This document shows positions 2,668 through 33,305 of a stretch of DNA of 64,000 nucleotides, one piece after another. Each line of letters begins with the position of its first letter. Within the stretch, counting starts at the first letter, position 1. Both the position numbers and the translations under genes were made by a program. The notes beneath the pieces are model-generated. The model worked only from the letters and a program-made list of their open reading frames with translations. It was not told the origin of the DNA and did no database searches. Origin of the DNA: a virus; the IMG/VR virus record IMGVR_UViG_3300030387_000070. One strand, written 5' to 3'.

Positions 2668-3534
2668 ATGAAAAACCTGTATTGCTATGATAATGAAATC
2701 ATAAAATGGACTTTACGCGACAATCTATATTGTTTGCATATTCAGCACGATGATATTGCGGACAATAATCCTCGTTGGTGGGACGAACATGATTCTGTAA
2801 TGGCCTGTTTTCATTCTCGGTATCGTCTTGGTGATAAGATTGATGCGAGTACGGCAGAAGAGTTTTGGAACAATCTTGTTTACGAGTATTGCTCTGATGA
2901 AGAAATTCTGGATGCACTTTTTAACATGAAGTTGGAAGATACCTGTGTCGTTGTTGATGAGAATTACAGTGACGAAAAACGATATACTATTTGTGGTATC
3001 GGAACTCTTTTTGATAAAAAGGTCTCTAATAATCCAATGTATGTTGGATTAAAGTATAACGAAATTGCTACATATGTTGCTGGTGAATTTTCTATTCGAG
3101 ATTGTCAGATTCTTCTTGATAAGCATATTGCATGGCTTCCTCTTTGGCTGCACGATCACTCTGGTTTATCTATGGATTGTGATACACGGTTCAGAGGTTC
3201 GTTGGATGACAGTAATGTTGGTTGGATTGTGATCGCTATTACGGATGGTTCGGATAATACCAAAAACGAAGCAGAACGAATCATGCGTAACGAGGTAAAG
3301 ACTTACAGCGATTATCTTTCTGGTGAAAACTATGGCTATACGCTTTATAAAGAAGAGCATGGAGAGTGGAAAGAAATTGACAGAGCATTCGGATTTATCG
3401 GTTCCGATGTATTTGAAAACGGTATCACATACAGCGTTGGCTGTGGCCTTGAAACAGCATTAAAGGAAGATCGGTGCCGTATCGGTGATGCAGAGAAGGT
3501 TGTGACCGTCACTTATAACTTTGATAAATGTTGA
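2668..3534 (+). CDS. conserved phage protein, function unknown
   Basis: Track ORF 2629-3534 trimmed to ATG 2668 (GGGAG upstream). Motifs LWLHDHSGLSM and VKTYSDYLSGENYGYTLY..FGFIGSD recall a widespread phage/ICE family whose name I cannot give. Confidence 0.6.
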   Translation: MKNLYCYDNEIIKWTLRDNLYCLHIQHDDIADNNPRWWDEHDSVMACFHSRYRLGDKIDASTAEEFWNNLVYEYCSDEEILDALFNMKLEDTCVVVDENYSDEKRYTICGIGTLFDKKVSNNPMYVGLKYNEIATYVAGEFSIRDCQILLDKHIAWLPLWLHDHSGLSMDCDTRFRGSLDDSNVGWIVIAITDGSDNTKNEAERIMRNEVKTYSDYLSGENYGYTLYKEEHGEWKEIDRAFGFIGSDVFENGITYSVGCGLETALKEDRCRIGDAEKVVTVTYNFDKC

Positions 3535-3557
3535 GTCCTAAAAGGGGTTGAATAGAT

Positions 3558-3722
3558 ATGGCATATAAATACACCGAAGAAGAAGTTTGGGATGCGATTC
3601 ATACACTTTCTGATATGAGAGCTGGATTTAACTGCTTTGACGAAAATGATGTACAGAAGTATGAAGCGTGTTCAATGGGGATTGTTGCATTAAGAACGCT
3701 TGTGGACGCCGATAAAAGTTGA
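3558..3722 (+). CDS. hypothetical protein (54 aa)
   Basis: Hand-found ORF (MAYKYTEEEVWDAIHTLSDM..) with AAAGGGG upstream. Fills a gap. Confidence 0.4.
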   Translation: MAYKYTEEEVWDAIHTLSDMRAGFNCFDENDVQKYEACSMGIVALRTLVDADKS

Positions 3723-3742
3723 ATTTTAGGAGGAAAATAAAG

Positions 3743-4237
3743 ATGGATAACAACATGATGGAACGTCAGATTGCTAATTATATGGTAGAGTATGGTACTA
3801 AGAATACAAATTATGGCACATGGGTGTTTGAGGTTGATGAACTGGCGAAAAAGTTCAATATTACAGAGAAATGGATTCAGGAACATGAAGACGGTATTAT
3901 GTCTGAGCTGTATCTCAGAGAAGAAGTGGCTGACGTTGAACGTGAATTAAGCGGCAATGATATGACTATCACACTTTTTGATGTGAATTTCTACACCGAC
4001 TATTGCCCTAACTACATTGAAGACAAACAGGAAAAGGATGATGACGTAAATCAGTATTGGTTTGCAGAAACACGTTGGTGTACCGATGATATTATTGGTA
4101 TTGCAAAAGACAATGGAATTAAAATGACTCCGCAGCAAGCAGAACAGTGGTGGAAGAAGAATGAAAATTGGTTCAAGAATATCATTGTAGAATATGGTAA
4201 TGAAGTGCTGGAAGATGCAGATTTTAGTGAGGTGTAA
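3743..4237 (+). CDS. hypothetical protein
   Basis: Track ORF 3719-4237 trimmed to ATG 3743, behind TAGGAGGA. Confidence 0.55.
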   Translation: MDNNMMERQIANYMVEYGTKNTNYGTWVFEVDELAKKFNITEKWIQEHEDGIMSELYLREEVADVERELSGNDMTITLFDVNFYTDYCPNYIEDKQEKDDDVNQYWFAETRWCTDDIIGIAKDNGIKMTPQQAEQWWKKNENWFKNIIVEYGNEVLEDADFSEV

Positions 4238-8956: not shown

Positions 8957-9139
8957 ATGCTCAAATATGGAAATATAACGTGTAAACGTTGTGGTATTAC
9001 ATGGTATGGACCAAAATGCGGAAAGCTTTACTGTGAAGAGTGTCGTAAGGTTGTAAACAACGAGAAGAGTCTCAAATGGTACAGAAGTAATAGAGAGCTT
9101 GTTGCAAGGAATCGTGCAGAGAGAAAGGCAATGAGGTGA
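8957..9139 (+). CDS. small zinc-ribbon protein
   Basis: CKRCG..CGKLYCEEC pairs followed by a basic tail. Sits immediately upstream of the recombinase. Confidence 0.5.
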   Translation: MLKYGNITCKRCGITWYGPKCGKLYCEECRKVVNNEKSLKWYRSNRELVARNRAERKAMR

Positions 9140-9963
9140 ATGTGATGAGTGCAGTTGTTGAAAGAAAAGAAGAACAGATATCTAAATTGATCTATTTTAA
9201 TCCGAAGCCTTCTGTTCCGGCTAAAAAACGTGGTGTTACAAAAAGTAAGCAGAAGCGCAAGCGTAATATTTCTCCAATTAGAAGCTTGGATGATGTTCAA
9301 ATGATTTCGGAATACTTCTGGGATAAAAAGCAATATCGCAATTGGTGTCTATTTAATGTAGGTATTGCAACTGGTTTGCGTGCTAGTGATTTGCTCAAAT
9401 TGAAGGTTTCCGATATGTCTTATTGCCTTTATAATGGAAAGATTGAAGTGGTTGAAGACGCTGGAGTTTGCATCGTTGAAGAAAAAACATCTAAATATCG
9501 TGAAATCATTCTTACTCCAGAAGCGAGAGATATCGTTGAAACATACATTAAGATTGCGAATCTTGGATATGACGATTGGATGTTTCCGTCTCGGCAGGGG
9601 AGTTGGAAAAAGTCATTGAGGACAAATGGTGGAGATGGGAAAACTGGTATTCCTCATATTGCAGAACCCAAAAAGGCCGGTGATCCTATTGATGTTGATT
9701 CTTTTGCTCGTATCCTTCGTAATGCTGGCAGAGATTTGGGTCTTAATTACAAGATTGCATCTCATTCTTGCCGTAAGACATTTGGTTATCGTGAGATGTG
9801 TCTTAATAAGGATGACAACCAGGCATTGTCTTGGATTCAGGGTCAGTTGAATCATAGTAGTCAGGACATTACATTACGGTACGTTGGTTTTGATGAGGAT
9901 AAGGCAAAAGAATATTATAAGAAGACTTTTTATGGTGTGAATACACACAGCTTGGAAGACTGA
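9136..9963 (+). CDS. tyrosine recombinase / phage integrase family
   Basis: Catalytic signature present in order: GLRASD (Arg), EEKTSK (Lys), ASHSCRKTF (His-x-x-Arg), LNHSS (His), TLRYVG (Tyr). Confidence 0.85.
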   Translation: MNVMSAVVERKEEQISKLIYFNPKPSVPAKKRGVTKSKQKRKRNISPIRSLDDVQMISEYFWDKKQYRNWCLFNVGIATGLRASDLLKLKVSDMSYCLYNGKIEVVEDAGVCIVEEKTSKYREIILTPEARDIVETYIKIANLGYDDWMFPSRQGSWKKSLRTNGGDGKTGIPHIAEPKKAGDPIDVDSFARILRNAGRDLGLNYKIASHSCRKTFGYREMCLNKDDNQALSWIQGQLNHSSQDITLRYVGFDEDKAKEYYKKTFYGVNTHSLED

Positions 9964-15667: not shown

Positions 15668-16594
15668 ATGCTTACTGAAGAAAAAATCAACGCTTTTGCC
15701 GAAAGGTATTCTGATAAAAGCGGTAAGTTTGTTGTATCGACACTTAACAATGTTATGATCTATGAGGCCGAGTGTGGGTATGAGTTGTTTGATTTTACAA
15801 AAAATGATTTTGTAAAGATGTTTGCAAAATACAATTGGGTGAACTCAAGTCGTTCATTTAGAAATGTGAAATCAATAATCACTGGCTACATCAAAAGTGA
15901 AGATCGTACAAGTTTGTATGACTTGGCTGAATTTTCGGAAAATGACGTAAGTTCAGACGATATGTATGCAGACAAGTATTTTGCATCGGTTGATGAATTT
16001 GTTGACTTATTAAATAAATACGAAGAGCCATATCAGATTCGTATGAACGTGATTGCTGTATTATACTGGATCGGACTTACCGCTGGTGAAATTGTTAATC
16101 TAACAATCAATGATGTTGATTTTGAATCTCGTACTGTTCTCAATAGGACTGGTATTGATGCGAGGTTGATGGATATCATCAAGCAGTGTTATGAAATGAA
16201 ACAATATGATGCTCCCAACATGGGAGGATACAGAACGTTTTATGTCATAAACGGTGATTACATCCTTCGCAAAACAGAGGACAGGACTGGAGCAGACAGT
16301 GACCCAAAGATATCTACAAATACAATTCATACCTATTTTATGAGATTGAATGATATTCTCGAAAAAAGAGGTTGTTCTAAGATTTTGGACCAAAGACATT
16401 TAACAAGAAACAACGAGTATATCAAGGTTTATGACTATTGCAAAACTCATCCAGAATTTAATCTTGTAGAACTTAGCTTCGGAAATGGTAAAGATCCTCT
16501 TGCAGACATTATCGGAAGAAAGTGTAGCAAGGTAGCCTATATTAGCTTCCGGCAAGGATACAAGGGCTGGATTGAGTATTTCCATAAAAATTAA
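15668..16594 (+). CDS. tyrosine-recombinase-like protein, possibly catalytically degenerate
   Basis: IAVLYWIGLTAGEIVNLTINDVDF resembles the GLR..E box but has Thr in place of Arg. RHLTRN is a possible His-x-x-Arg box. The assignment is tentative. Confidence 0.35.
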   Translation: MLTEEKINAFAERYSDKSGKFVVSTLNNVMIYEAECGYELFDFTKNDFVKMFAKYNWVNSSRSFRNVKSIITGYIKSEDRTSLYDLAEFSENDVSSDDMYADKYFASVDEFVDLLNKYEEPYQIRMNVIAVLYWIGLTAGEIVNLTINDVDFESRTVLNRTGIDARLMDIIKQCYEMKQYDAPNMGGYRTFYVINGDYILRKTEDRTGADSDPKISTNTIHTYFMRLNDILEKRGCSKILDQRHLTRNNEYIKVYDYCKTHPEFNLVELSFGNGKDPLADIIGRKCSKVAYISFRQGYKGWIEYFHKN

Positions 16595-19001: not shown

Positions 19002-19083
19002 GCCAAGGTGCTGCAAATGGGAGACAGGGCGAGCCCAAACCTCGCTGTGGAAACACATGCGGTTTCGAATACCGTCCTTGGCA
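19002..19083 (+). tRNA. tRNA-Leu(CAA), type II, CCA encoded
   Basis: Hand fold:
- acceptor GCCAAGG/CCTTGGC
- 3-bp D stem
- anticodon stem GCGAG/CTCGC with loop CCCAAAC
- extra arm TGTG-GAAA-CACA
- T arm GCGGT-TTCGAAT-ACCGT
- then A and CCA
Position 33 is C, which is unusual. Confidence 0.65.
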
Positions 19084-19114
19084 CCAGATAATTTTATGAA
19101 GAAAGGATGATTGC

Positions 19115-19798
19115 ATGGTTAATAGGGCAGAAGATCATATTGGTGATGTCTTTGATTTGTTTGAGGTGATTGATGTTATTCGAGATGAAAATAATATTCC
19201 ATCTTACAAATGTCGATGTAAAGAATGTGGATGGACAGGGCTAAAAAATATAGCTCAGGCGAGAGCGGTTAAAGTGTGTCGGCATAAACAATCGAGTGGC
19301 GATTATAGAAATTTTTCTACACGGTGGAAAAACAAAAGAATCGGACGAATCTTTCATGGAATGAAAGCAAGATGCTATGATGTTGATGATAAAAACTATA
19401 TAACGTATGGCATGAAAGGAATTTGTGTTTATCAAGAATGGTTGGATAATCCAAAGTCATTTGAAGAGTGGTCGTTGAAAAATGGATACAAAGATAGTTT
19501 GACAATCGATAGAATTGATTCGACAAAAGATTACTGTCCTGATAATTGCAGATGGATATCATTGGAAGATAATTCAAAATATAAATCCACAACTCGAATG
19601 TTAGAAGTAGATGGTGAAATACATACGGGACGTGATTGGGCGGCAGAATTAGGGCTTGGAACAAACACGATAAATAAATATGTAAGAAGATACGGAGAAG
19701 ATAATACAAAACAATTTATAAGAAGAGTATTAAAGGACCCGGATAAAGTGAATTCTCGACAAGGGAAACAAACTATCTATAATCTTTACATGAACTAA
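19115..19798 (+). CDS. HNH-type homing-endonuclease-like protein
   Basis: LTIDRIDSTKDYCPDNCRWISLEDNS is the HNH_3-like core. N-terminal CxxC zinc motif (CRCKECG). C-terminal HTH-like WAAELGLGTNTINKYVRRYG. Sits between two tRNA genes. Confidence 0.65.
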   Translation: MVNRAEDHIGDVFDLFEVIDVIRDENNIPSYKCRCKECGWTGLKNIAQARAVKVCRHKQSSGDYRNFSTRWKNKRIGRIFHGMKARCYDVDDKNYITYGMKGICVYQEWLDNPKSFEEWSLKNGYKDSLTIDRIDSTKDYCPDNCRWISLEDNSKYKSTTRMLEVDGEIHTGRDWAAELGLGTNTINKYVRRYGEDNTKQFIRRVLKDPDKVNSRQGKQTIYNLYMN

Positions 19799-19805
19799 AT
19801 TGAAA

Positions 19806-19845
19806 TGGCCCAGTGTAAAAACTGAGTACATTGGGCCAAATATTT
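19806..19845 (+). terminator. hairpin terminator after the HNH gene
   Basis: 12-bp stem TGGCCCAGTGTA / TACATTGGGCCA (one G-U pair) with a 9-nt loop, followed by an A/T-rich tail. Confidence 0.5.
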
Positions 19846-19851
19846 ATATGA

Positions 19852-19935
19852 GCACCCGTGGTGAAATTGGCAACCACGATGGACTTAAAATCCATTCCCG
19901 GTAACGGGTTGCGAGTCCGAGTCTCGCCGGGTGCA
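19852..19935 (+). tRNA. tRNA-Leu(UAA), type II
   Basis: Hand fold:
- acceptor GCACCCG/CGGGTGC
- anticodon stem ATGGA/TCCAT with loop CTTAAAA
- extra arm CCCG-GTAA-CGGG
- T arm GCGAG-TCCGAGT-CTCGC (non-canonical T loop)
No encoded CCA. Confidence 0.65.
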
Positions 19936-19940
19936 TATTT

Positions 19941-20013
19941 CTGGGCGTAGCGAAGTTGGCATCGCACCTGTTTTGGGAACAGGGGACCGCAAGTTCAAAT
20001 CTTGTCGCTCAGA
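19941..20013 (+). tRNA. tRNA-Pro(UGG), CCA encoded
   Basis: Hand fold:
- acceptor CTGGGCG/CGCTCAG
- D arm GCGA..TCGC
- anticodon stem CCTGT/ACAGG with loop TTTGGGA
- T arm GCAAG-TTCAAAT-CTTGT
- then A and CCA. Confidence 0.75.
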
Positions 20014-20019
20014 CCACTA

Positions 20020-20106
20020 CGAGGATTCGCCAAGTTGGTAAGGCAGCGGAATTTGACTCCGCCAGCGCTGAACAAGCGGTCACAGGTTCGAGTCCTGTAT
20101 CCTCGG
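20020..20106 (+). tRNA. tRNA-Gln(UUG)-like with a 19-nt extra arm
   Basis: Hand fold:
- acceptor CGAGGAT/ATCCTCG
- D arm TCGCCAAGTTGGTAAGGCA
- anticodon stem GCGGA/TCCGC with loop ATTTGAC
- variable region CAGCGCTGAACAAGCGGTC (CGCT/AGCG hairpin)
- T arm ACAGG-TTCGAGT-CCTGT
- discriminator G. Confidence 0.55.
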
Positions 20107-20113
20107 CTTATAT

Positions 20114-20195
20114 GCGGGTATGGTGTAACTGGCAGCCACGTCAGATTTAGGATCTGATGCCGAAAGGCGTGAGGGATCGTGCCCCTCTACCCGTA
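20114..20195 (+). tRNA. tRNA-Leu(UAG), type II, CCA encoded
   Basis: Hand fold:
- acceptor GCGGGTA/TACCCGT (G1-U72)
- anticodon stem TCAGA/TCTGA with loop TTTAGGA
- extra arm GCC-GAAA-GGC
- T arm GAGGG-ATCGTGC-CCCTC (atypical loop)
- then A and CCA. Confidence 0.55.
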
Positions 20196-20297
20196 CCACG
20201 GTCATAGAATGGTTGCGTACCGTTTGTTGATCTCCTTTACTATTATTCCCGGCTCGCCAGTGATGGTGCAGTAGTGCTTTGTAAGCTGGGTTTTCAT

Positions 20298-20369
20298 GCA
20301 GCGGTCGTACAACGGCTAGTACATCAGCCTTCCAAGCTGAGGATGAGGTTTCGACTACCTTTCGCTGCT
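20298..20369 (+). tRNA. tRNA-Gly(UCC), CCA encoded
   Basis: Hand fold:
- acceptor GCAGCGG/TCGCTGC
- D arm GTAC..GTAC
- anticodon stem TCAGC/GCTGA with loop CTTCCAA
- T arm GAGGT-TTCGACT-ACCTT
- then T and CCA. Confidence 0.75.
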
Positions 20370-20560
20370 CCAATCTTGTATGGGTAGGATCTTTAGCGGT
20401 CAGATCCAGCCGCGCCTGTGCAAGATACCACCCCGAAAGGGGCGAGATATAGGAAATGTGCATCGCTGTTATTCCTTCCTCGTCTATATGATATAGATGC
20501 AATAGTGTTTTATAAGGAAGGTCCCCAGTTGAATAGTTGCAGCTGTTTGACTGGTAATAT

Positions 20561-20634
20561 GGGATAGTAGCTCAGTTGGTCAGAGCTGGCGGCTCATAAC
20601 CGCTTGGTCGCGAGTTCAAATCTTGCCTGTCCCA
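20561..20634 (+). tRNA. tRNA-Met/Ile2(CAU)
   Basis: Hand fold:
- acceptor GGGATAG/CTGTCCC
- D arm GCTC-AGTTGGTCA-GAGC
- anticodon stem GGCGG/CCGCT with loop CTCATAA
- T arm GCGAG-TTCAAAT-CTTGC. Confidence 0.75.
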
Positions 20635-20742
20635 CTAACCCGATAGGGTGAATACATAGAATTTGCTAGAAATTTTGTTTTATGGGCGAATAAATAATAT
20701 GACGTTGATACGTCTATTATTTTTCGCTAATTTTTAAAGTTT

Positions 20743-20763
20743 TAGCTATGTAACACAGGATAC
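20743..20763 (+). promoter_or_regulatory. 21-bp motif, forward (copy 3)
   Basis: TAGCTATGTAACACAGGATAC, 18 nt upstream of GTG 20781. A/T-rich upstream sequence (CTAATTTTTAAAGTTT). Confidence 0.55.
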
Positions 20764-20780
20764 GAAAAGGAGGTGGTTTG

Positions 20781-21503
20781 GTGAAACATTATGGAAGTAT
20801 TTGCGAGATTGATGGTTCTAAGATTGAGCCTGTCTCGTGTATCACTGGTGGTTCACCTTGTTAGCCAAGACCTTTCTATTGCCGGCAAGCGGGCAGGTTT
20901 GGCTGGAGAACGGTCTGGTCTATTTATGGAAATGATTCGTGTGATAAAGGAGATGAGGGAGGCCACCAATGGAGAGTATCCAAAATTTGCAATCTGGGAA
21001 AACGTCCCAGGAGCCTTCTCTTCCAACAAAGGAGAAGACTTTAGATGTGTCTTGGAAGAATTTGCACGCATTGTCGAACCAAGTGTTTCAGTTCCTCGAC
21101 CTTCGGGAAGAGAATGTAAGTGGGCAAAAGCTGGAGCAATCGCCGGAAACGGATGGTCCTTGGCGTGGAGATTATTCGACGCTAGTGGTTGGGGTGTTCC
21201 CCAGCGTAGAAAACGTCTCGCGCTTGTCATGGACCTTAGAGGACAATGTGCCGGAAAAGTATTATTTGAGCAAACGGGCGTGTCAGGGGATCTTGATAAG
21301 AGCGTCAAGACGTGGAAAACCATTGCCCGACCTTCTGAAGGATGCACTGCAGGAGATGATTCATTGGTGGGAGATGAAAGATCCTACACTTTGAAGATTC
21401 GTTCTGGCTGCGCAGGGGGGGTAAAGGAGCACTCGTGCAGAATGAATTGAGTGCGACTCTCTCCACTTTGCAAGATCAGACTTTGTTCTGTGTAAAGCAT
21501 TAA
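20781..21503 (+). pseudogene. C5-cytosine DNA methyltransferase, catalytic part (motifs IV-VIII), frame-disrupted
   Basis: - GTG 20781 follows AAGGAGG by 7 nt and gives ..IEPVSCITGGSPC, then TAG at 20862.
- One frame over: QDLSIAGKRAGLAGERSGLF, WENVPGAFSS, GVPQRRKRLALV.
- Further homologous-looking pieces lie in the two other frames: ..LEDNVPEKYYLSKRACQGIL.. and GGKGALVQNELSATLSTLQDQTLF.
- At least 3 frame changes are needed to read all of this. Confidence 0.7.
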
Positions 21504-21515
21504 GGAGGGAACGGA

Positions 21516-22262
21516 TTGGAAAAAGAAACCAGTTTACATAATTTAAAACAAAATATTTCCACAGCGGTATTTGAAAGCCATAGTCAGGATGCTCGATACA
21601 CTCAGCAAGGTAATACAAGCCCAGCTTGTACAGCTCAATGGGGTACTGGTGGTAATAATATGCCGCTTGTCGCTGAAAAGAAAGCCTTTGCTATGCAGCG
21701 TATTGGCGAATATAAGGAAAGCGAACAGGCCAGCACAATGAAATCTCGTGATTATAAAGATGCAACTGATCTTGTAGTTGAAGAGAAAGAGGTGAAATGT
21801 GCTGGGTTTCCACTTGGATTTAGAGCAGAAAATACGAAATGCTACGATGAAGTGGCTACTACGCTTTGCAATGGTACGCGGCCTGGATTTACTACTGGAT
21901 GTGTTCTCAATTGGATTGTTCGCCGCTTGACTCCTGTTGAGTGTGAACGGTTACAGGGTTTTCCTGATGGATGGACCGATATTGGCGAGTGGGTTGACGA
22001 AAATGGTAAAAAGCACAAGCCAGCCGATTCTCCTCGGTACAAGGCGCTCGGCAATTCGATTGCTTTGCCTCAGTGGTATTGGATTTGCCAGAAGATGAAA
22101 CCGTATATTGGTGAAAATCCTACGCTTGGCAGTCTTTTCGATGGAATCGGTGGCTTTCCGCTTGTCTTTGAAAGTACGTATGGTGATGGTACTGCTATCT
22201 GGGGATCTGAAATTGAATCGTTTTGTGTTGCGGTGACAAAGAAGCATTTTCCAGAAGACTAA
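21516..22262 (+). CDS. C5-cytosine DNA methyltransferase, target-recognition and motif IX-X part with a C-terminally appended motif I-II
   Basis: TTG start 7 nt after AAGGAGG. Contains WGTGGNNMPLV, VRRLTPVECERLQGFPDGWT and RYKALGNSIALP. It then continues into LGSLFDGIGGFPLVFE..IWGSEIESFCVAVTKKHFPED*, which is the FxGxGG AdoMet motif normally found at the N-terminus. Confidence 0.75.
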   Translation: MEKETSLHNLKQNISTAVFESHSQDARYTQQGNTSPACTAQWGTGGNNMPLVAEKKAFAMQRIGEYKESEQASTMKSRDYKDATDLVVEEKEVKCAGFPLGFRAENTKCYDEVATTLCNGTRPGFTTGCVLNWIVRRLTPVECERLQGFPDGWTDIGEWVDENGKKHKPADSPRYKALGNSIALPQWYWICQKMKPYIGENPTLGSLFDGIGGFPLVFESTYGDGTAIWGSEIESFCVAVTKKHFPED

Positions 22263-26180: not shown

Positions 26181-26193
26181 AAGAGGTTGGTAA

Positions 26194-27409
26194 ATGGATA
26201 ATACAGTTCATGACGCTCAAAGATTGAAGGAGCTTCAGGCACTCCCTCTTGAGCGAAAGATTCAAATCACTCAAAATCGCATCCAGGAATGGTATATGCA
26301 CTATGATGGCGGTGTGTACGTAAGCTTCTCCGGTGGTAAGGATTCTACTGTACTTGCTCATTTGACAAAGCAGCTGTTCCCAGATGTCCCGCTTGTGTTT
26401 AGTAATACAGGCTTGGAATACTCGTCAATCCAGAAATTTGCACGAAACGCAGATGCTGTTTTTGTTTATCCCAAGATGGGATTTAGTGATGTGGTCTCTA
26501 CATATGGTTATCCTCTTATCTCTAAAGAAGTGGCTGAAGCGATTTACTACGCTAGACGAATCAGAAATAGCGGCGCAGCCACCATGAGAGAGAGAGAGAG
26601 TAAGAACAACTCTCAGGAAAAAACAAGAACTTCTGGGTTTAAGGATGAACTGTCTGGGAGGTGTCTTTAGCAACCCGTGGCTTTACGATGAAACAGGAGT
26701 CTTTCAAGGAAACAGACGGACGATTCTACTTGGTAATGAACCGGGAGCTGAAATGCAGGCTGGAACAAAATCCATGTTCAATAAGGAAAAATGGTTGCCA
26801 GCAACACAAGAACTTCCGTTTGCAATTTCTCATTACTGCTGTTCAGTTATGAAAAAAGGTCCGATGAAGAAGTACGCAAGGGCAACCAAGCGTAAACCTA
26901 TTATTGGAACGTTGACTGATGAAAGTCGTGTTCGCAAGCAAGCTTGGATTCGACATGGGTGTAATGCTTTTGATAGCAAGTCTCCAACAAGTCAGCCTAT
27001 GAGTTTTTGGACTGAGCAGGACGTGCTCACTTTCATCAAACAGTCAGGAATTCAAATTGCAGATGTCTATGGCGATATTGTTCCTACGAGTGATAAGCCG
27101 GATGCGCCATTGTGCTGTACTGGGTGTGATCGTACCGGATGCACGTTTTGCGGATTTGGAGCTCACAACAAGAATGACAATAGATTCTCAACTCTTGCAG
27201 AACTTGACCCAAAGAAGTACGAGTATAGTATGAATGGTGGTCAATGGGTAGACAATCCAAAATATGATGCAACTGCACCAGAGTATGATGGTGTATGGAA
27301 GAATTGGAACCCGAAGAAAATCTGGGTGCCAAGCAAAGAAGGTCTTGGACTGAGAAAAGTTTTCGATATGTTTAATGAACTGTATCCAAACAACAAAATT
27401 CAATATTAA
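26194..27409 (+). pseudogene. PAPS-reductase-like PP-loop protein, frame broken
   Basis: YVSFSGGKDSTVLAHL is the PP-loop SGGKDS motif. The reading frame changes by +1 between track ORFs 26194-26670 and 26645-27409. The second frame is already open from 26588 (ERERVRTTLRKKQELLGLRMNCLGG..). Confidence 0.65.
26586..26600 (+). repeat. (GA)7G dinucleotide tract
   Basis: GAGAGAGAGAGAGAG, read directly. It lies where the two frames of the PAPS-reductase-like gene overlap. Confidence 0.95.
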
Positions 27410-27432
27410 AAAATATAAAGGGAGGTGGATGA

Positions 27433-28956
27433 GTGGAACTCATTTCAAATATCCCGAACGAAATTTTATTTGTTGGTGCAATTTACAAGCATCCTGACTA
27501 TTTGGTCGAGTATGGGCATTATGTCAAGAGCAAGTACGATTTTGCCGATGAAGCAACAAAATTTTTCTACGATGCAGCGTTAATTATTTATGAAACTCGG
27601 ACTCAAGAATTTAATAAAACGTCTGTTTTAACGTTTATGGCTGAAGACGAGTCCAGATTGTCCCAATATAAGCGGCTGAAGGGCTGGTCAACCATTGAAT
27701 ACTACATGAGTCTTGCGAATGACGATGATATCAAGGGATATTTCAATATCCTGAAGAAATATTCGCTACTTCGTGAGTATCAGAGAAACGGATTTAACAT
27801 TGAAGGAATCTTGAAGCATCGACAGTTTGAAATGTTTGGTGCTCAGGACATTTACAAATTGATTCGTGGCAAGGCAGACAAGATCAATACGGTTATCATT
27901 ACAAACGATGATGCTGAGATTTTGAATAATGGTCTGCTGCCAATGGTCAATGAACGTCTGAGCGTTCCTGATATGGGCTTGCCGTTCCAGTACCCCATCA
28001 TGAACGATTTATTCCGAGGATTGAAGCTGGGCACTGTGATGTTCAATGGTATGCCATCTAACGCTGGCAAGACTAGATACATGATGGCGATTGTTGCCTA
28101 CGTCACATTAGTTCAAAAGCAAAAAGCTCTTTTGCTGCTGAATGAGATGGATCTTGAGTCAGTCCGGTATTGCTTACTGGTTACCGCCATCAACAATCCT
28201 GAATTTCAAGAGTTGCATGGTCATCGCTTCCACAAGGATGAGCGAGAAATCACTCTTGGAATGTACCGGGATGCAAATGGAAACTTCATCTTCCGAAAGC
28301 AAAACGAAGATGGAGAATACATAGAAAGCATTGATGAGTTTACCGCTCGTGTCTACGAAGAAAGCGAAGAGTACCGCAATGTGCTTGATGTTTGCCAGTG
28401 GATTGAGAGCGAATCACAAGGCTTGATTATCGCAAAGGATGTTTCAGCTGATTATAGTGATAAGTCTCTGCGATTTGAAATCCAGAAGGCAGCTCTCACT
28501 CAGGGAGTTAAGTATGTGTTCTACGATACTCTAAAGAACGATATTGCATCTATTGGTGAATGGGCAGCGTTCAAGGTCACGGCCACCGAGCTTGAAGAGA
28601 TTGCGAAAAATCTAAAGATCTTTATCTATGGTAGCATCCAGTTGGCTGAAAATGCCCATGAGTATCTTCCTGATGAGCTGAATTCAAACAACATTGCTGA
28701 GTCAAAAATGATTAAGCATGTTGCTTGGACGATGGTTTTATTCAAGGAGATTCCAAAAGATAAGTTTGCGAAGTATCAATACATCTCTCATGACCCTGAG
28801 TGGGGCGGTGACTGTGCCCATCGGCTAAATCCAGATAAGCGGTATTACGTTGGAAACATCGATAAGAACCGCTTTGGTGAGAAAAAGAAAATCATGTTTG
28901 AAGTGAATTTGAATCAGAATATTTGGAGAGAGGTCGGTGTCTGCACCAGAAAGTAA
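27433..28956 (+). CDS. DnaB-like replicative DNA helicase
   Basis: 507 aa. N-terminal DnaB-like region, then a RecA-type core with GMPSNAGKTRYMMAIV (Walker A-like) and LLLNEMDLE. GGAGGTGGATGA upstream of GTG. Confidence 0.65.
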   Translation: MELISNIPNEILFVGAIYKHPDYLVEYGHYVKSKYDFADEATKFFYDAALIIYETRTQEFNKTSVLTFMAEDESRLSQYKRLKGWSTIEYYMSLANDDDIKGYFNILKKYSLLREYQRNGFNIEGILKHRQFEMFGAQDIYKLIRGKADKINTVIITNDDAEILNNGLLPMVNERLSVPDMGLPFQYPIMNDLFRGLKLGTVMFNGMPSNAGKTRYMMAIVAYVTLVQKQKALLLLNEMDLESVRYCLLVTAINNPEFQELHGHRFHKDEREITLGMYRDANGNFIFRKQNEDGEYIESIDEFTARVYEESEEYRNVLDVCQWIESESQGLIIAKDVSADYSDKSLRFEIQKAALTQGVKYVFYDTLKNDIASIGEWAAFKVTATELEEIAKNLKIFIYGSIQLAENAHEYLPDELNSNNIAESKMIKHVAWTMVLFKEIPKDKFAKYQYISHDPEWGGDCAHRLNPDKRYYVGNIDKNRFGEKKKIMFEVNLNQNIWREVGVCTRK

Positions 28957-28965
28957 GGAACTACA

Positions 28966-29988
28966 ATGGTAAATATCGCAGATCTGAAAAATTACATTCT
29001 TGAAGAACAGCAGATTGAACCGATTCTGGAGGAACTTGGTTGTCATCATATCAGTCACAAGACTGGTTATTACCAGTGTGCAAATCCAGATGGTGACAAT
29101 AGAACGGCACTCTGTATCTACGAGAATGAGAATCTTACTGCGGTAGATTACACACGAGATATTGCCAATGGAAAGACCAGTTATGATTTGATTTCTGTCG
29201 TCCAGTTCTTTCTGGAACTGTCTTTCCCAAAAGCCATTAAGCAAATCTGCGAATGGGTTGGTCTTGACTACTATCACAACTTTGAGGAAGACCTTCCTAA
29301 AAGTATGTTGATTCTAAAAGAGCTCATTGCCATGCAAAATGAAGGCGAAGAATACGAGGATGACCGTCCGATAGTCCCCATCTCCGAAGCCATTCTCGGT
29401 TATTACAAACCTTATGTGAACCAGATTTTTGCTGATGATGGGATATCTTATGAGACGCAGCAGGAGTTTGAAATTGGCTTTGATGAATTGACAAATAGAA
29501 TCACGATTCCAATCAGAGACGAAATTGGCACTCTGGTTGGTGTAAAGGGAAGATACTTCGGCAAGCCGCCTGAAGGCGAGATGAAGTACAAGTATATTGA
29601 GCCGTGTGCCAGAAACCGTATTCTGTATGGCCTGTATAAGACAGAGCCGTATATCAAGAATGAAGGTCTGGTATATGTTGGTGAAGCTGAAAAGTCTGTC
29701 ATGCAGATGTGGAACATAGATGTCTGCAACTGTGTGGCGACTGGCGGTAAGAAGGTTTCACAGAATCAAATTGAAATTTTGACACGTCTTTGCGTTGATA
29801 TTTGCTTTGTCTTTGATAAAGACGTTCAGCTTAGTGAGCTTATGGTTCTCGCCAATCGATTCGTCGATGGCGTAAGTGTGTATGCTGTAGTAGATGATAA
29901 AGGGATTCTGGATGAAAAGGAAGCCCCAACTGATAATCCTGAAAAATTTAAGGCATTGATTGAGAATTGTGTTAGGAGAATTAAATGA
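28966..29988 (+). CDS. DNA primase (Toprim)
   Basis: Toprim-like VYVGEAEKSVMQMW..ATGGKK..CFVFDKD. Adjacent to the helicase. Confidence 0.6.
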   Translation: MVNIADLKNYILEEQQIEPILEELGCHHISHKTGYYQCANPDGDNRTALCIYENENLTAVDYTRDIANGKTSYDLISVVQFFLELSFPKAIKQICEWVGLDYYHNFEEDLPKSMLILKELIAMQNEGEEYEDDRPIVPISEAILGYYKPYVNQIFADDGISYETQQEFEIGFDELTNRITIPIRDEIGTLVGVKGRYFGKPPEGEMKYKYIEPCARNRILYGLYKTEPYIKNEGLVYVGEAEKSVMQMWNIDVCNCVATGGKKVSQNQIEILTRLCVDICFVFDKDVQLSELMVLANRFVDGVSVYAVVDDKGILDEKEAPTDNPEKFKALIENCVRRIK

Positions 29989-31709
29989 ATGTAAAACTCT
30001 GGAAGGGGAGTAGGAACGACCTATCAGACCCGATTGGAACGATTATGGAGAACAGAGGGGTTGAGGATTATAAGACCTACATGAACCTAGATGATTCTTG
30101 TCTGAATTCTCCGTGGGAACTGGACAACATGGAAGATGCTGTCATGATGTTGAATAAACACCTTTGGAAAAAGTCTACCATCTCTATCCTTGTAGACTGT
30201 GATGTGGACGGTTTTACAAGTGCTTCGATGATGTTTCAGTATTTGAAGGCGATTGGTTATTTTAGAAAAATCAATGTTCTGTATCATAGTGGCAAGGAAC
30301 ATGGACTCTCTAAAGAAATTGAGGTTCCACCTGAAACTACTTTGCTGATTATTCCTGACGCTGGCAGCAATGATGTTGAGCAGTGTAGGGAACTCCATGA
30401 AAAGGGCATTGATATTTTGATTCTTGATCATCATATCTGCGATAGAGAAAATCCTTACGCGATAATTGTCAACAACCAGAATGGCACATATCCTAACAAG
30501 GAACTGTCCGGTGCGGGTGTTGTGTATAAGTTCCTTCAGGCTGTTGATGAAAGTAATTGGACTGATGTTGCAGACCGATATCTTGATTTGGTGGCGGTCG
30601 GAAATATTGGTGATGTAATGGATATGCACTCGCATGAAACAAAACGGCTTTGTACAAAGGGCTTGGCACGAATTGTGAATCCGATGATTTGTGCTCTGGT
30701 TGAGGCGAATAGCTTCAACATTAAGGGTGACCCTACTATCAATGATGTTCAGTTCTACATTGTCCCGATGATGAATGCACTGATTCGTGTTGGCTCATCT
30801 GAACAAAAGAAGCGGATGTTTCGTGCAATGGTCAGTGAAGAACAGACTTTCCAATACACTCCGACTCGTGGTAAGAATGCTGGTGTCACGATTGATGAAA
30901 CTCTTGCGCAGCATGTGGCTCGTGAGTGTTCCTCTTGTAAGTATCAACAGAATAAAATCAAGGACAAGGCTGTTGGAGAGCTTCAGAAGTTGATTGAAAA
31001 GCACGGTGCAGACCAGAACAAGATTCTTTTCTGCAACTCCACAGGTGTTCTTGATAACACTTTGACTGGTGTTGTGGCAATCAAGCTTGCTGAAATGTAT
31101 GCGAAACCGTGCGTGTTGCTCCGTACTTTTACTGACGAACCGGATTATTATGGTGGTTCGATGAGAAATCCTGACGGTTCTCCGATTGAAAGCCTAAAGG
31201 AATTCTTGATGAGCACCGGAGATTTTGAATCGGTTCTTGGTCATGACAATGCTGCTGGTGTGAAAATCAAGAAAGAAAATGTGTCAAAGGCTATTGCAGA
31301 CTGTGATGAGCTACTTAAAGATGTCACGATGAGTAAGGCAATCGTGGTTGACTTTGATTTTGATTACAATAAATTGAACGTTGCATTGCCGAAAACGATG
31401 TATGAGATGCACAAAATCTGGGCACAGGGTATTTCTGAGCCGTATTTCTACATTAGAAACATTCCGCTTGTTCATAGTGGATGTGCTCCGATGGGCAAAA
31501 ACGGTAATATGTGGAAGTATTCTGATGAAGAAAAAGGCATTGATTTTGTGTGTTTTAATGACAATGGCCGGATGATTGGCTGGATTAACAATGACTTCTA
31601 TGGTGGTCAAGAAGAAAAATACATCAATGCTGTATGCCGGTTGTCTTTGAATCAGTATGGAAACAAGGTGACTCCGCAGGCACAGATTGTTGATTTTGAG
31701 GTGATTTGA
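29985..31709 (+). CDS. DHH-family phosphoesterase, RecJ-like
   Basis: DHH motifs VDCDVDGFTS, IIPDAGSND and ILDHHI. Confidence 0.7.
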   Translation: MNVKLWKGSRNDLSDPIGTIMENRGVEDYKTYMNLDDSCLNSPWELDNMEDAVMMLNKHLWKKSTISILVDCDVDGFTSASMMFQYLKAIGYFRKINVLYHSGKEHGLSKEIEVPPETTLLIIPDAGSNDVEQCRELHEKGIDILILDHHICDRENPYAIIVNNQNGTYPNKELSGAGVVYKFLQAVDESNWTDVADRYLDLVAVGNIGDVMDMHSHETKRLCTKGLARIVNPMICALVEANSFNIKGDPTINDVQFYIVPMMNALIRVGSSEQKKRMFRAMVSEEQTFQYTPTRGKNAGVTIDETLAQHVARECSSCKYQQNKIKDKAVGELQKLIEKHGADQNKILFCNSTGVLDNTLTGVVAIKLAEMYAKPCVLLRTFTDEPDYYGGSMRNPDGSPIESLKEFLMSTGDFESVLGHDNAAGVKIKKENVSKAIADCDELLKDVTMSKAIVVDFDFDYNKLNVALPKTMYEMHKIWAQGISEPYFYIRNIPLVHSGCAPMGKNGNMWKYSDEEKGIDFVCFNDNGRMIGWINNDFYGGQEEKYINAVCRLSLNQYGNKVTPQAQIVDFEVI

Positions 31710-31710
31710 T

Positions 31711-32058
31711 ATGGGAAATCGGAAGCGTGCTATTGCCATCGACTTTGATGGCACTCTCTGTGAGAATAATTATCCCGATATTGGTGAGCCAAACTGGAAT
31801 GTAATTTATGAAGCAATTCAGGAACAGAAGCATGGTGCGGGCTTGATTCTATGGACTTGCCGGGAAGGGAAGCTCTTGTATGACGCAATGGAAGCTTGCT
31901 TCGATTGGGGCATTCAGTTTGATGCAATCAATGAGAGCCTTCCTGAGTGGAAAGAGCATTTTGGCACTGCTCCTAGAAAGGTTGGAGCTGATGAATATTG
32001 GGATGATAAGGCTAAAGTTGTAAAGAATGGAGAGTTGATTGATAATGCTGATGCCTGA
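31711..32058 (+). CDS. small HAD-superfamily hydrolase-like protein
   Basis: AIAIDFDGTLC is a DxDGT motif I. Confidence 0.45.
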   Translation: MGNRKRAIAIDFDGTLCENNYPDIGEPNWNVIYEAIQEQKHGAGLILWTCREGKLLYDAMEACFDWGIQFDAINESLPEWKEHFGTAPRKVGADEYWDDKAKVVKNGELIDNADA

Positions 32059-32230
32059 ACAGTTTGAAGCAGACGTTAAAGAATTTATCGCAGAATGCCA
32101 AAGCCATCCAGTGATAGATTTATCAAAAGATGATCCATGCGAAGGATGTCGCTTTGAGGACTTTTGCGATAGGTTTTATCCGGGCGATGGTAGCACATGG
32201 CATTGGCGAGTTTATGAAGGGGGCGAATGA
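32045..32230 (+). CDS. hypothetical protein
   Basis: Track ORF 32039-32230; first ATG is at 32045. Confidence 0.4.
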   Translation: MLMPEQFEADVKEFIAECQSHPVIDLSKDDPCEGCRFEDFCDRFYPGDGSTWHWRVYEGGE

Positions 32231-32989
32231 ATGGTTTACATTACAGGTGATATTCATGGTGATTTTAATCGTCTCTTAAAGCTAAATAAGTTTTGCCATA
32301 AACACAATCTTGGAAGGAATGACTGGATTGTCTGCCTTGGCGATGTCGGTTTGAACTACTACGGCAAGGATGACCCTCGTGAATGGAGTATCAAGACCAT
32401 CGCCGCAGATATTCCTGCAAATCTGTTTTGTATTCATGGCAACCACGAGCGCCGCCCGTCTCGTAAGGATGGTTACAAACTAAGGAAGATTTGTGGTGAT
32501 ATTTGCGGAAGAGTGTGGTATGACCCGCAGTATCCAAACCAGTATTTTGCTATTGATGGTGAGGTTTACCAGATTTCTGCTGATATGGAAATTTTGAACT
32601 GCCTTGTTTGCGGCGGAGCTTATTCCGTAGATAAATATTATCGGTTGGAGCGGGGATATAATTGGTTTCCCGATGAACAGCCGAATGAAAAAATAAAAAA
32701 GAAAGTTGCGCAGCAGGTAAACGATAGTAATATCGATGTTGTGTTAAGTCACACCTGTCCGACACGCTACGTTCCTACAGAGTTGTTTCTTAGTTGTGTT
32801 GATCAAAGCACTGTTGATAGTTCTACGGAAGAGTTTCTTGATGATATTCTTGATATTCTGGAAGAGACTCATATTGGTAAGCCGTTCTGGTATTTTGGTC
32901 ACTTCCATGGAAATAAATACACTGACAATTATGTGATGCTTTTTGATGATGTTATTAAATTTGGAGATAAGGTGAATACGGATGACTAA
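32231..32989 (+). CDS. calcineurin-like metallophosphoesterase
   Basis: YITGDIHGD, LGDVGLNY and IHGNHE boxes. Confidence 0.7.
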   Translation: MVYITGDIHGDFNRLLKLNKFCHKHNLGRNDWIVCLGDVGLNYYGKDDPREWSIKTIAADIPANLFCIHGNHERRPSRKDGYKLRKICGDICGRVWYDPQYPNQYFAIDGEVYQISADMEILNCLVCGGAYSVDKYYRLERGYNWFPDEQPNEKIKKKVAQQVNDSNIDVVLSHTCPTRYVPTELFLSCVDQSTVDSSTEEFLDDILDILEETHIGKPFWYFGHFHGNKYTDNYVMLFDDVIKFGDKVNTDD

Positions 32990-33305
32990 AGATAAAAGTT
33001 TACGAGTGCTTGATTATATTGATGGCAAGGAAATCCTCATTCAAATGGGTGAGGAAGGTTCTGAGCTGTCGAAAGCTGCGATAAAGTTTTATCGTGCAAT
33101 TGACATGAAGAACCCAACACCTGTAAGTATCAATGAAGCTTACGAAAATCTCGTAGAAGAATTCGGTGATGTGTTGAACTGTATCTACGCATACTATGAT
33201 GATGACGAGGATTGCATCTTAGCGTTTACATCGAAAGCGAATGAGATTGCTAACGAGAAGCGCAAGCGCTGGATTAAGCGTCTGAAGGAACGCGACCAGT
33301 TTTAA
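32982..33305 (+). CDS. MazG-like nucleotide pyrophosphohydrolase (tentative)
   Basis: EEGSELSKAAIKF...LVEEFGDVLNCIY resembles the EExxE...ExxD helical MazG pattern. Confidence 0.4.
   Translation: MTKDKSLRVLDYIDGKEILIQMGEEGSELSKAAIKFYRAIDMKNPTPVSINEAYENLVEEFGDVLNCIYAYYDDDEDCILAFTSKANEIANEKRKRWIKRLKERDQF

Follow-up and report, generated by a model that had tools for sequence, protein, structure and literature searches.

A variable GA dinucleotide tract in a PAPS-reductase-like gene of a large gut phage is a probable slipped-strand contingency locus

The viral DNA analyzed here is a stretch of 64,000 nucleotides (nt) from IMG/VR record IMGVR_UViG_3300030387_000070 (the window, to which all coordinates refer), and it contains a PP-loop gene resembling those for phosphoadenosine phosphosulfate (PAPS) reductases that changes frame at a run of seven GA dinucleotides. 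With a probability that we put at about three in four, this (GA)n tract acts as a slipped-strand contingency locus, by which the gene for an accessory phage enzyme is switched between an intact (ON) and a truncated (OFF) form. An initial annotation, made from the letters of the window alone, had proposed a phase-variable phage gene controlled by a simple-sequence repeat, and this proposal is supported by tracts of 4 to 15 units in related phages, by the tract being the sole lesion in the gene, and by a low ratio of nonsynonymous to synonymous differences per site (pN/pS). The features of the locus are as follows, where ORF is open reading frame and n is the number of GA units.

26194 to 27409, plus strand: whole PAPS-reductase-like PP-loop gene, in the OFF state in the window
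26194 to 26670, plus strand: ORF1, the truncated OFF product of 158 amino acids (aa), consisting of the N-terminal PP-loop half only
26588 to 27409, plus strand: +1 frame, with the rest of the PAPS_reduct domain, the cysteine cluster and the C-terminal domain
26586 to 26599, plus strand: (GA)7 simple-sequence repeat, the frameshift site
26618 to 26623, plus strand: A6 run, not the shift site
26668 to 26670, plus strand: TAG stop of frame 1 when n = 1 mod 3

ORF1 carries the PP-loop motif SGGKDS at residues 46 to 51 and reads ..ATMRERESKNNSQEK.. up to the TAG at 26668 to 26670, and the +1 frame opens at 26588, directly after a TGA at 26585 to 26587. The tract starts at the G of codon ATG131 and, with its trailing G, reads GAGAGAGAGAGAGAG (26586 to 26600); translated in the ON frame, it gives repeated Arg-Glu pairs. 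The stops, the frames and the position of the tract are as the initial annotation described them; of the two repeats that it listed in the overlap, the GA tract was placed correctly, whereas the A6 run lies at 26618 to 26623 and not at 26617 to 26622. Adding one GA unit, to give (GA)8, produces a single ORF of exactly 405 aa, as had been predicted to within rounding, and removing two units, to give (GA)5, produces one of 403 aa. The Pfam PAPS_reduct profile (PF01507) is split between the frames, with profile positions 3 to 46 in ORF1 and 67 to 170 in the second frame; each of the two ORFs matches part of the same profile, and they are therefore one gene. The length of the tract is far beyond chance expectation: when the window was simulated 200 times with a first-order Markov model, no run contained a dinucleotide repeat of at least 7 units, and at the thresholds used the 64 kb hold only one simple repeat besides this tract.

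The two ORFs have been deposited as separate proteins (ORF1, DAO62182.1; ORF2, DAO62181.1), both on a 135,656-bp contig, and the exact ORF1 protein occurs on 33 contigs. The annotated ORF2 (254 aa) begins at an ATG at 26645. Its independent translation was rejected, being unlikely because this ATG is not conserved (most relatives have ACG, encoding Thr), and the AAGG ahead of it is too near the start codon. The A6 run was rejected as the site of the shift; the relatives read AAAAGA at the same length, a substitution with no insertion or deletion. A link to the TAG-recoding Phassvirus group, whose genomes are similar in size (PMC10607447), was also considered; no suppressor tRNA was found within the window, and frame 1 beyond the TAG would in any event meet a TGA seven codons later.

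Tract length was compared across 48 close-relative alleles, comprising 29 IMG/VR loci and the window (together 30 full-length genes) and 18 ENA alleles recovered by a DNA-pattern scan of metagenome contigs; the 29 IMG/VR loci sit on contigs mostly of about 120 to 139 kb. The repeat is present in all 48, and it is not uniformly (GA)8 but occurs in ten lengths that range from 4 to 15 units, with 18 alleles ON and 30 OFF. Among the IMG/VR and window alleles the tract has 5 (six alleles), 7 (five), 8 (three), 9 (three), 10 (five), 11 (two), 12 (three) or 13, 14 or 15 units (one each), and 11 of these alleles are ON, as single ORFs, and 19 OFF. The ENA alleles likewise span 4 to 15 units (7 ON, 11 OFF). 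Only n = 5, 8, 11 or 14 (2 mod 3) yields an enzyme of 396 to 407 aa with a variable (Arg-Glu)k stretch, whereas n = 1 mod 3 yields a fragment of 156 to 162 aa and n = 0 mod 3 leads to a stop at a TAA immediately 3' of the tract. All 48 tracts are pure, although synonymous differences per synonymous site (pS) stand at 0.27 elsewhere in the gene. The exact OFF product of (GA)9 was found on 230 contigs.

A search with the restored protein returned thousands of homologues (roughly 8000), and nearly all of the best 120 align end to end; the homologues are single ORFs and not naturally two genes. The closest, P0001 (403 aa, 96% identity), reads ATMRERVRTT and thus has (GA)5, so that the window carries two extra units, or +4 nt, relative to it. 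A further homologue, P0004, has (GA)4 together with a 1-nt deletion 34 nt downstream (AGAACTTCTGG -> AGAATTCTGG) and encodes an intact protein of 400 aa. Ten of its residues come from the alternative frame (SKNNSQEKTR), a second-site restoration of frame, and this segment of the protein is therefore tolerant of change.

Changing the number of GA units alone restores an ORF of 396 to 407 aa in all 30 full-length genes, 19 of which are OFF, and none of the 19 full-length OFF alleles contains a second lesion. Across the 30 genes pN/pS is 0.07 at a pS of 0.27, with values of 0.04 for the N and C parts and 0.41 for an insert at residues 129 to 190. Pairs of OFF alleles give 0.067, at pS up to 0.5, versus 0.088 for pairs of ON alleles. 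These ratios indicate strong purifying selection on the gene, whether the allele is ON or OFF.

The tract turns over quickly and repeatedly. The number of GA units by which two alleles differ shows no correlation with the divergence of their flanks (Spearman rho of 0.06). The closest nonidentical pair of genomes differs by 0.4% across 7.2 kb and carries tracts of 9 and 12 units; genomes that are identical agree in their tracts. After duplicates were collapsed, 35 haplotypes remained, and five groups of these have identical 400-nt flanks and differing tracts (8 versus 10; 8 versus 7; 8 versus 12 versus 9; 9 versus 12 versus 8; and 11 versus 10 units), four of the groups including both ON and OFF members. 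Tracts of 6 units or fewer are ON in 6 of 7 haplotypes and longer tracts in 7 of 28 (Fisher P = 0.006, for alleles that are phylogenetically nonindependent). Such a bias toward ON among short tracts would be expected if stable alleles must be functional and mutable ones can be OFF.

The repeat was also found at the homologous site in distant homologues of the gene. The distant set comprised 24 loci at about 48 to 61% identity, and among the 16 that were compared with one another no pair exceeded 80% nucleotide identity. About 30 kb of homologue genes contained 33 repeats, versus 22 in about 155 kb of flanking sequence (1.11 versus 0.14 per kb), an enrichment of about 8-fold (Poisson P of about 1e-18). 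A repair test on 21 loci identified 9 with a disrupted gene, and 7 of these 9 were restored to 418 to 451 aa by a single repeat change. The following tracts were recorded.

L032: (GA)7
L034: (GA)9
L039: (AG)4 A (AG)8
L043: G9
L045: G9
L047: G10
L052: (AG)11
L055: (AC)5
L056: G8 C (AG)4

The (GA)n, (AC)n and poly-G tracts all sit 15 to 50 nt after conserved YYARR codons, and ON proteins of the subfamily carry (ER)2-6 at the tract position. Poly-Gly, (Arg-Glu)n and (Thr-His)n are unrelated as peptides, so that what is conserved at the site is the presence of a mutable tract. More distant and mostly shorter relatives (34 to 45% identity) have 0.24 versus 0.16 repeats per kb in genes and flanks, which is little enrichment, and by these counts the repeat-site trait is specific to the subfamily. 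It is about an even chance that the subfamily, whose genes occur in phages from the human gut and other metagenomes, maintains a dedicated site of mutability, a simple repeat of any motif, and that expression of the enzyme is governed generically by stochastic frameshift switching there.

Several further observations were made among these loci. L036, a contig from a distant phage, contains two tandem paralogues of the PAPS-reductase-like gene (1841 to 2968 and 3001 to 4110). Poly-G or poly-C runs of 7 to 11 bases are present in neighboring genes in the flanks of L035, L037, L041/L042, L045, L047, L055 and L056, and by analogy with Fletchervirus the phages of these distant homologues may have several repeat-controlled genes. 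Other repeats occur now and then in the more distant homologues: L297 contains (AT)16 at 3335 to 3366 (gene nt 335), and L296 and L298 contain G9 and G8, respectively, at gene nt of about 736, with match lengths that are not multiples of 3.

The number of GA units cycles the frame through three states, one ON and two OFF. If the tract is a contingency locus, units would be gained and lost by polymerase slippage during phage replication. The change would be reversible on short time scales, and each lineage could hedge its bets by keeping progeny in both states. The enzyme would help in some hosts and be costly in others, placing it under fluctuating, host-dependent selection; it is probably an ATP-pyrophosphatase with conserved CC and CxxC...CxxC cysteines that modifies nucleic acid or transfers sulfur. 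A number of points weigh against this scheme. ON alleles make up 13 of 35 haplotypes, in line with the one third expected from frame-neutral drift (binomial P = 0.72), and a crude rate from pairs less than 2% divergent exceeds the rate of substitution per site only by a factor of tens to hundreds. The phylogenetic nonindependence of the alleles weakens the Fisher test, all of the tract data are assembly consensus sequences, and a host-dependent trade-off between cost and benefit of the enzyme is a conjecture.

It is possible, if unlikely, that the tract is instead an unstable and nonadaptive microsatellite, in which an Arg-Glu helical spacer is tolerated or even wanted and OFF alleles are transient losses of function that involve no bet-hedging. 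The ON frequency of about one third is what would be seen without selection on frame, the absence of the gene from 59 of 80 genomes of the phage family (described below) implies that its loss is tolerated, and AlphaFold2 predicts a helix at residues 131 to 146, right after the tract. Deleterious variants could hardly account for about 60% of alleles being OFF at a pN/pS of 0.07, however, and the poly-G and (AC)n tracts at the same site encode unrelated peptides, so that mutability and not the peptide is conserved. The 8-fold enrichment of repeats in the gene over its flanks and the purity of 48 of 48 tracts in a gene with a pS of 0.27 also favor a contingency locus.

Recoding is a less probable explanation still. 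Here slippage of RNA polymerase or the ribosome on (GA)n, which permits perfect re-pairing after a 2-nt shift, would make OFF alleles leaky and tract length nearly neutral, and this would explain both the purifying selection in OFF lineages and the frame-random lengths. The fold of 26575 to 26700 nevertheless gives no stimulatory RNA structure downstream (z = -0.12 versus shuffles), OFF alleles occur in both alternative frames, and those with n = 0 mod 3 meet a TAA at once. Short tracts are almost always in frame, which is unexpected if frame were irrelevant, and elongation slippage is, to our knowledge, documented for homopolymers and not for dinucleotide repeats. Programmed ribosomal frameshifting in particular was rejected, since the relatives occupy all three frames with no fixed two-frame arrangement and the downstream region lacks structure.

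The initial annotation had also allowed for a decayed gene or an assembly error, and neither agrees with the comparative data. A decaying pseudogene would be split, as the gene is in the window and in 30 of 48 alleles, but this reading is very improbable given that the tract is the sole lesion in 30 of 30 full-length alleles, that the 19 OFF alleles among them have no second lesion, and that OFF alleles, too, keep pN/pS near 0.07 (0.067, with pS reaching 0.5); a neighboring C5-methyltransferase allele, by contrast, has three independent lesions. A sequencing or assembly artefact, conceivable in that repeats are error-prone and the analysis rests on assemblies and not on reads, is scarcely credible with ten lengths in 48 independent IMG/VR and ENA assemblies, identical tracts in identical genomes, and exact OFF products on 230 contigs for (GA)9 and 33 for the window allele.

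The restored protein scores 55 bits against PF01507 (gathering cutoff, 22.5) and falls in PHROG 424. Its AlphaFold2 model has a predicted local distance difference test score of 82.5 and is confident for residues 10 to 120 and 190 to 403 and poor for about 121 to 190; the tract, at codon 131 of 403, thus lies in a poorly conserved, low-confidence insert at residues ~121 to 190. The top Foldseek matches in the PDB are CysH and adenosine phosphosulfate (APS) reductases (6vpu, 1sur and 2goy; probability of 1.0, TM-score on target of 0.5 to 0.57), and these matches place the PP-loop protein in the PAPS-reductase fold. Identity to CysH is just 12%, and sequence relationships to solved proteins remain remote. 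Cysteines C214, C215, C255, C307, C315 and C318 are invariant and C310 is nearly so; the CC and CxxC cysteines are reminiscent of the iron-sulfur ligands of APS reductase and DndC.

The protein shares the SGGKDS PP-loop and the PAPS-reductase fold with CysH, DndC, SspD and BrxP, but unlike these it has an extra C-terminal domain of about 100 aa and the variable insert. It falls below every NCBIfam cutoff, and assignment as a CysH of sulfate assimilation was rejected on a score of 25.5 bits for NF002537 versus an equivalog cutoff of 154. PADLOC matches span residues 20 to 86 only (BrxP, E = 3e-11; SspD, 2e-7; DndC, 4e-3). A DndC, SspD or BrxP enzyme of DNA phosphorothioation was also rejected, as there was no full-length model match and there were no partner genes; none of the Dnd (DndA/D/E), SspA-C or BREX core partners was found in the neighborhood of the gene. 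The neighbors in the window include genes for a Sak4-like ATPase, DnaB, primase and RecJ, and those of the distant homologues are heterogeneous replication and recombination genes, with no dedicated partner found. The phage PAPS-reductase gene family has been described in a review as very common and of unassigned function (PMC11437467).

The gene is a dispensable accessory cassette with the following limits.

26187 to 27412, plus strand: single-gene accessory cassette

Empty sites join 26186 directly to 27413 through a microhomology that resembles a ribosome-binding site (AAAGAGG / AAAGGGAGG). In a family set of 80 genomes with DnaB helicases of 99% identity or more (loci L177 to L256), the gene is absent from 59, present with a tract in 19, and present in a tract-less form at 73% identity in 2; the upstream ORF of 230 aa is also found in genomes without the cassette. 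The phage itself, from the gut and with a large genome (about 135 kb), has its own replisome, ligase, NrdD, RNA ligase/kinase and 7 tRNA genes. A near-identity search of INPHARED gave no match for the gene or for 27433 to 33000. Distant protein matches in INPHARED are below 40% identity, to phages of Ruminococcus and Clostridium, and a helicase is 36% identical to one of Geobacillus virus E3; the nearest deposited relatives of the phage infect Bacillota, and its own host is probably a gut member of that phylum. No close relative of the phage was found in GTDB genomes. The tRNA cluster (19002 to 20635) encodes three tRNA-Leu and one each for Pro, Gln, Gly and Met, with an HNH endonuclease ORF (19115 to 19798) between the first two, and the window also contains two ORFs resembling tyrosine recombinases (9136 to 9963 and 15668 to 16594). 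In L062 (ENA ERZ28576188 scaffold_2), positions 211,967 to 218,380 hold the phage locus. At 468,450 bp this scaffold is about 3.5 times the size of the phage genome; the phage could be integrated there as a prophage, or the scaffold could be a concatemer or a wrong join, and the sequence might point to the host.

A second hypervariable repeat in the window, a G7 run, lies in a DNA-modification gene.

20700 to 22262, plus strand: circularly permuted C5-cytosine DNA methyltransferase (PF00145), broken in the window lineage
21415 to 21421: G7 run, the sole G/C homopolymer of at least 6 bases in the window

The methyltransferase is one ORF of about 490 aa in most family members, whereas the window allele has three lesions, namely, an insertion of 4 nt within the catalytic PCQ motif near 20855, the poly-G frameshift, and an in-frame TAA at 21501 to 21503, which is followed by a ribosome-binding site and a TTG at 21516. 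In 12 close relatives of this allele the run has 7 (four alleles), 8 (four), 9 (one), 10 (two) or 11 (one) bases, and in the 66 other family alleles the same three glycines are encoded by GGT GGY GG, without the run. The gene may be decaying or may work as a split enzyme; it was rejected as a second clean contingency gene, as the PCQ insertion and the TAA look like decay or a split gene.

Coding dinucleotide repeats that act as contingency loci are known in bacteria. In Helicobacter pylori, CT repeats within the coding regions of oipA and hopZ cycle the frame through three states by slipped-strand mispairing. The GA locus resembles these in having a dinucleotide repeat in a coding region and three frame states, and it differs in belonging to a phage and in lying in an internal loop at codon 131 of 403, whereas oipA and hopZ are bacterial genes for surface proteins with the repeat near the 5' end. 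In the phasevarions of Haemophilus, Neisseria and Moraxella, a coding repeat sets production of a DNA methyltransferase, such as ModM (PMC6902483). The likeness is that a coding repeat decides whether an enzyme is made, with a nucleic-acid substrate presumed for the product of the GA-bearing gene; the phasevarion enzymes are bacterial and, unlike the phage protein, have a known activity and regulon.

Slipped-strand switching by repeats is already known in phages, and what is new here is a dinucleotide repeat and a hotspot extending across a subfamily. Among T-even phages, contingency loci include A-runs in the agt glucosyltransferase gene, which functions in DNA modification (Gomez, Barrick and Waters, 2025 preprint, PMC12633550). 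Switching of agt reflects a trade-off between two host restriction systems, and in the A6 to A9 runs variants occur at frequencies of about 1e-4 to 1e-3 while the consensus stays ON (PMC12633550); the subject of that paper is homopolymers, and it makes no mention of dinucleotide repeats. As at the GA locus, the repeat lies in a dispensable phage enzyme gene and shifts its frame, and the trade-off is of the kind that may, by analogy, operate here. At the GA locus, unlike in the T-even phages, the consensus varies from one natural population to another, OFF alleles are in the majority, and conservation of the repeat site extends over a gene subfamily. In the Campylobacter phages of the genus Fletchervirus, poly-G tracts in phage ORFs vary from 7 to 11 units and generate ON and OFF subpopulations (Sorensen et al., 2021, Cell Rep, as summarized in PMC11959909 and PMC12633550). 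The two systems have in common a simple repeat inside a phage ORF whose length shifts the frame. According to those summaries, the Fletchervirus tracts are homopolymers in genes for receptor-binding proteins of cultured phages and have been proven experimentally, whereas the GA tract is a dinucleotide repeat in a gene for a nonstructural accessory enzyme, and its gut phage is uncultured and known from assemblies alone. In the literature searched, phage PAPS-reductase genes were nowhere connected with repeats or frameshifts.

Phage contingency loci have been recognized only recently, and the published cases are homopolymers in cultured phages. The GA locus extends phage contingency to natural populations, in dozens of independent human-gut metagenomes, and has a very wide dynamic range (4 to 15 units). 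The repeat controls a single accessory cassette, and the phage that carries it, about 135 kb in size, is widespread. Genes of this kind are broken up by gene callers, DAO62182.1 and DAO62181.1 being an example, and annotators may discard them as pseudogenes. Unrelated motifs at the same codon position in homologues of about 50% identity argue that mutability itself is selected. If the subfamily does maintain a dedicated mutable site, this would be the first conserved contingency site described in viruses at the level of a gene family, and the enzyme would be a host-conflict gene, for example, one for nucleic-acid modification or counter-defense, with a benefit that reverses from host to host. 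The finding points to the phage PAPS-reductase family as being under fluctuating, host-dependent selection and offers a handle on its function.

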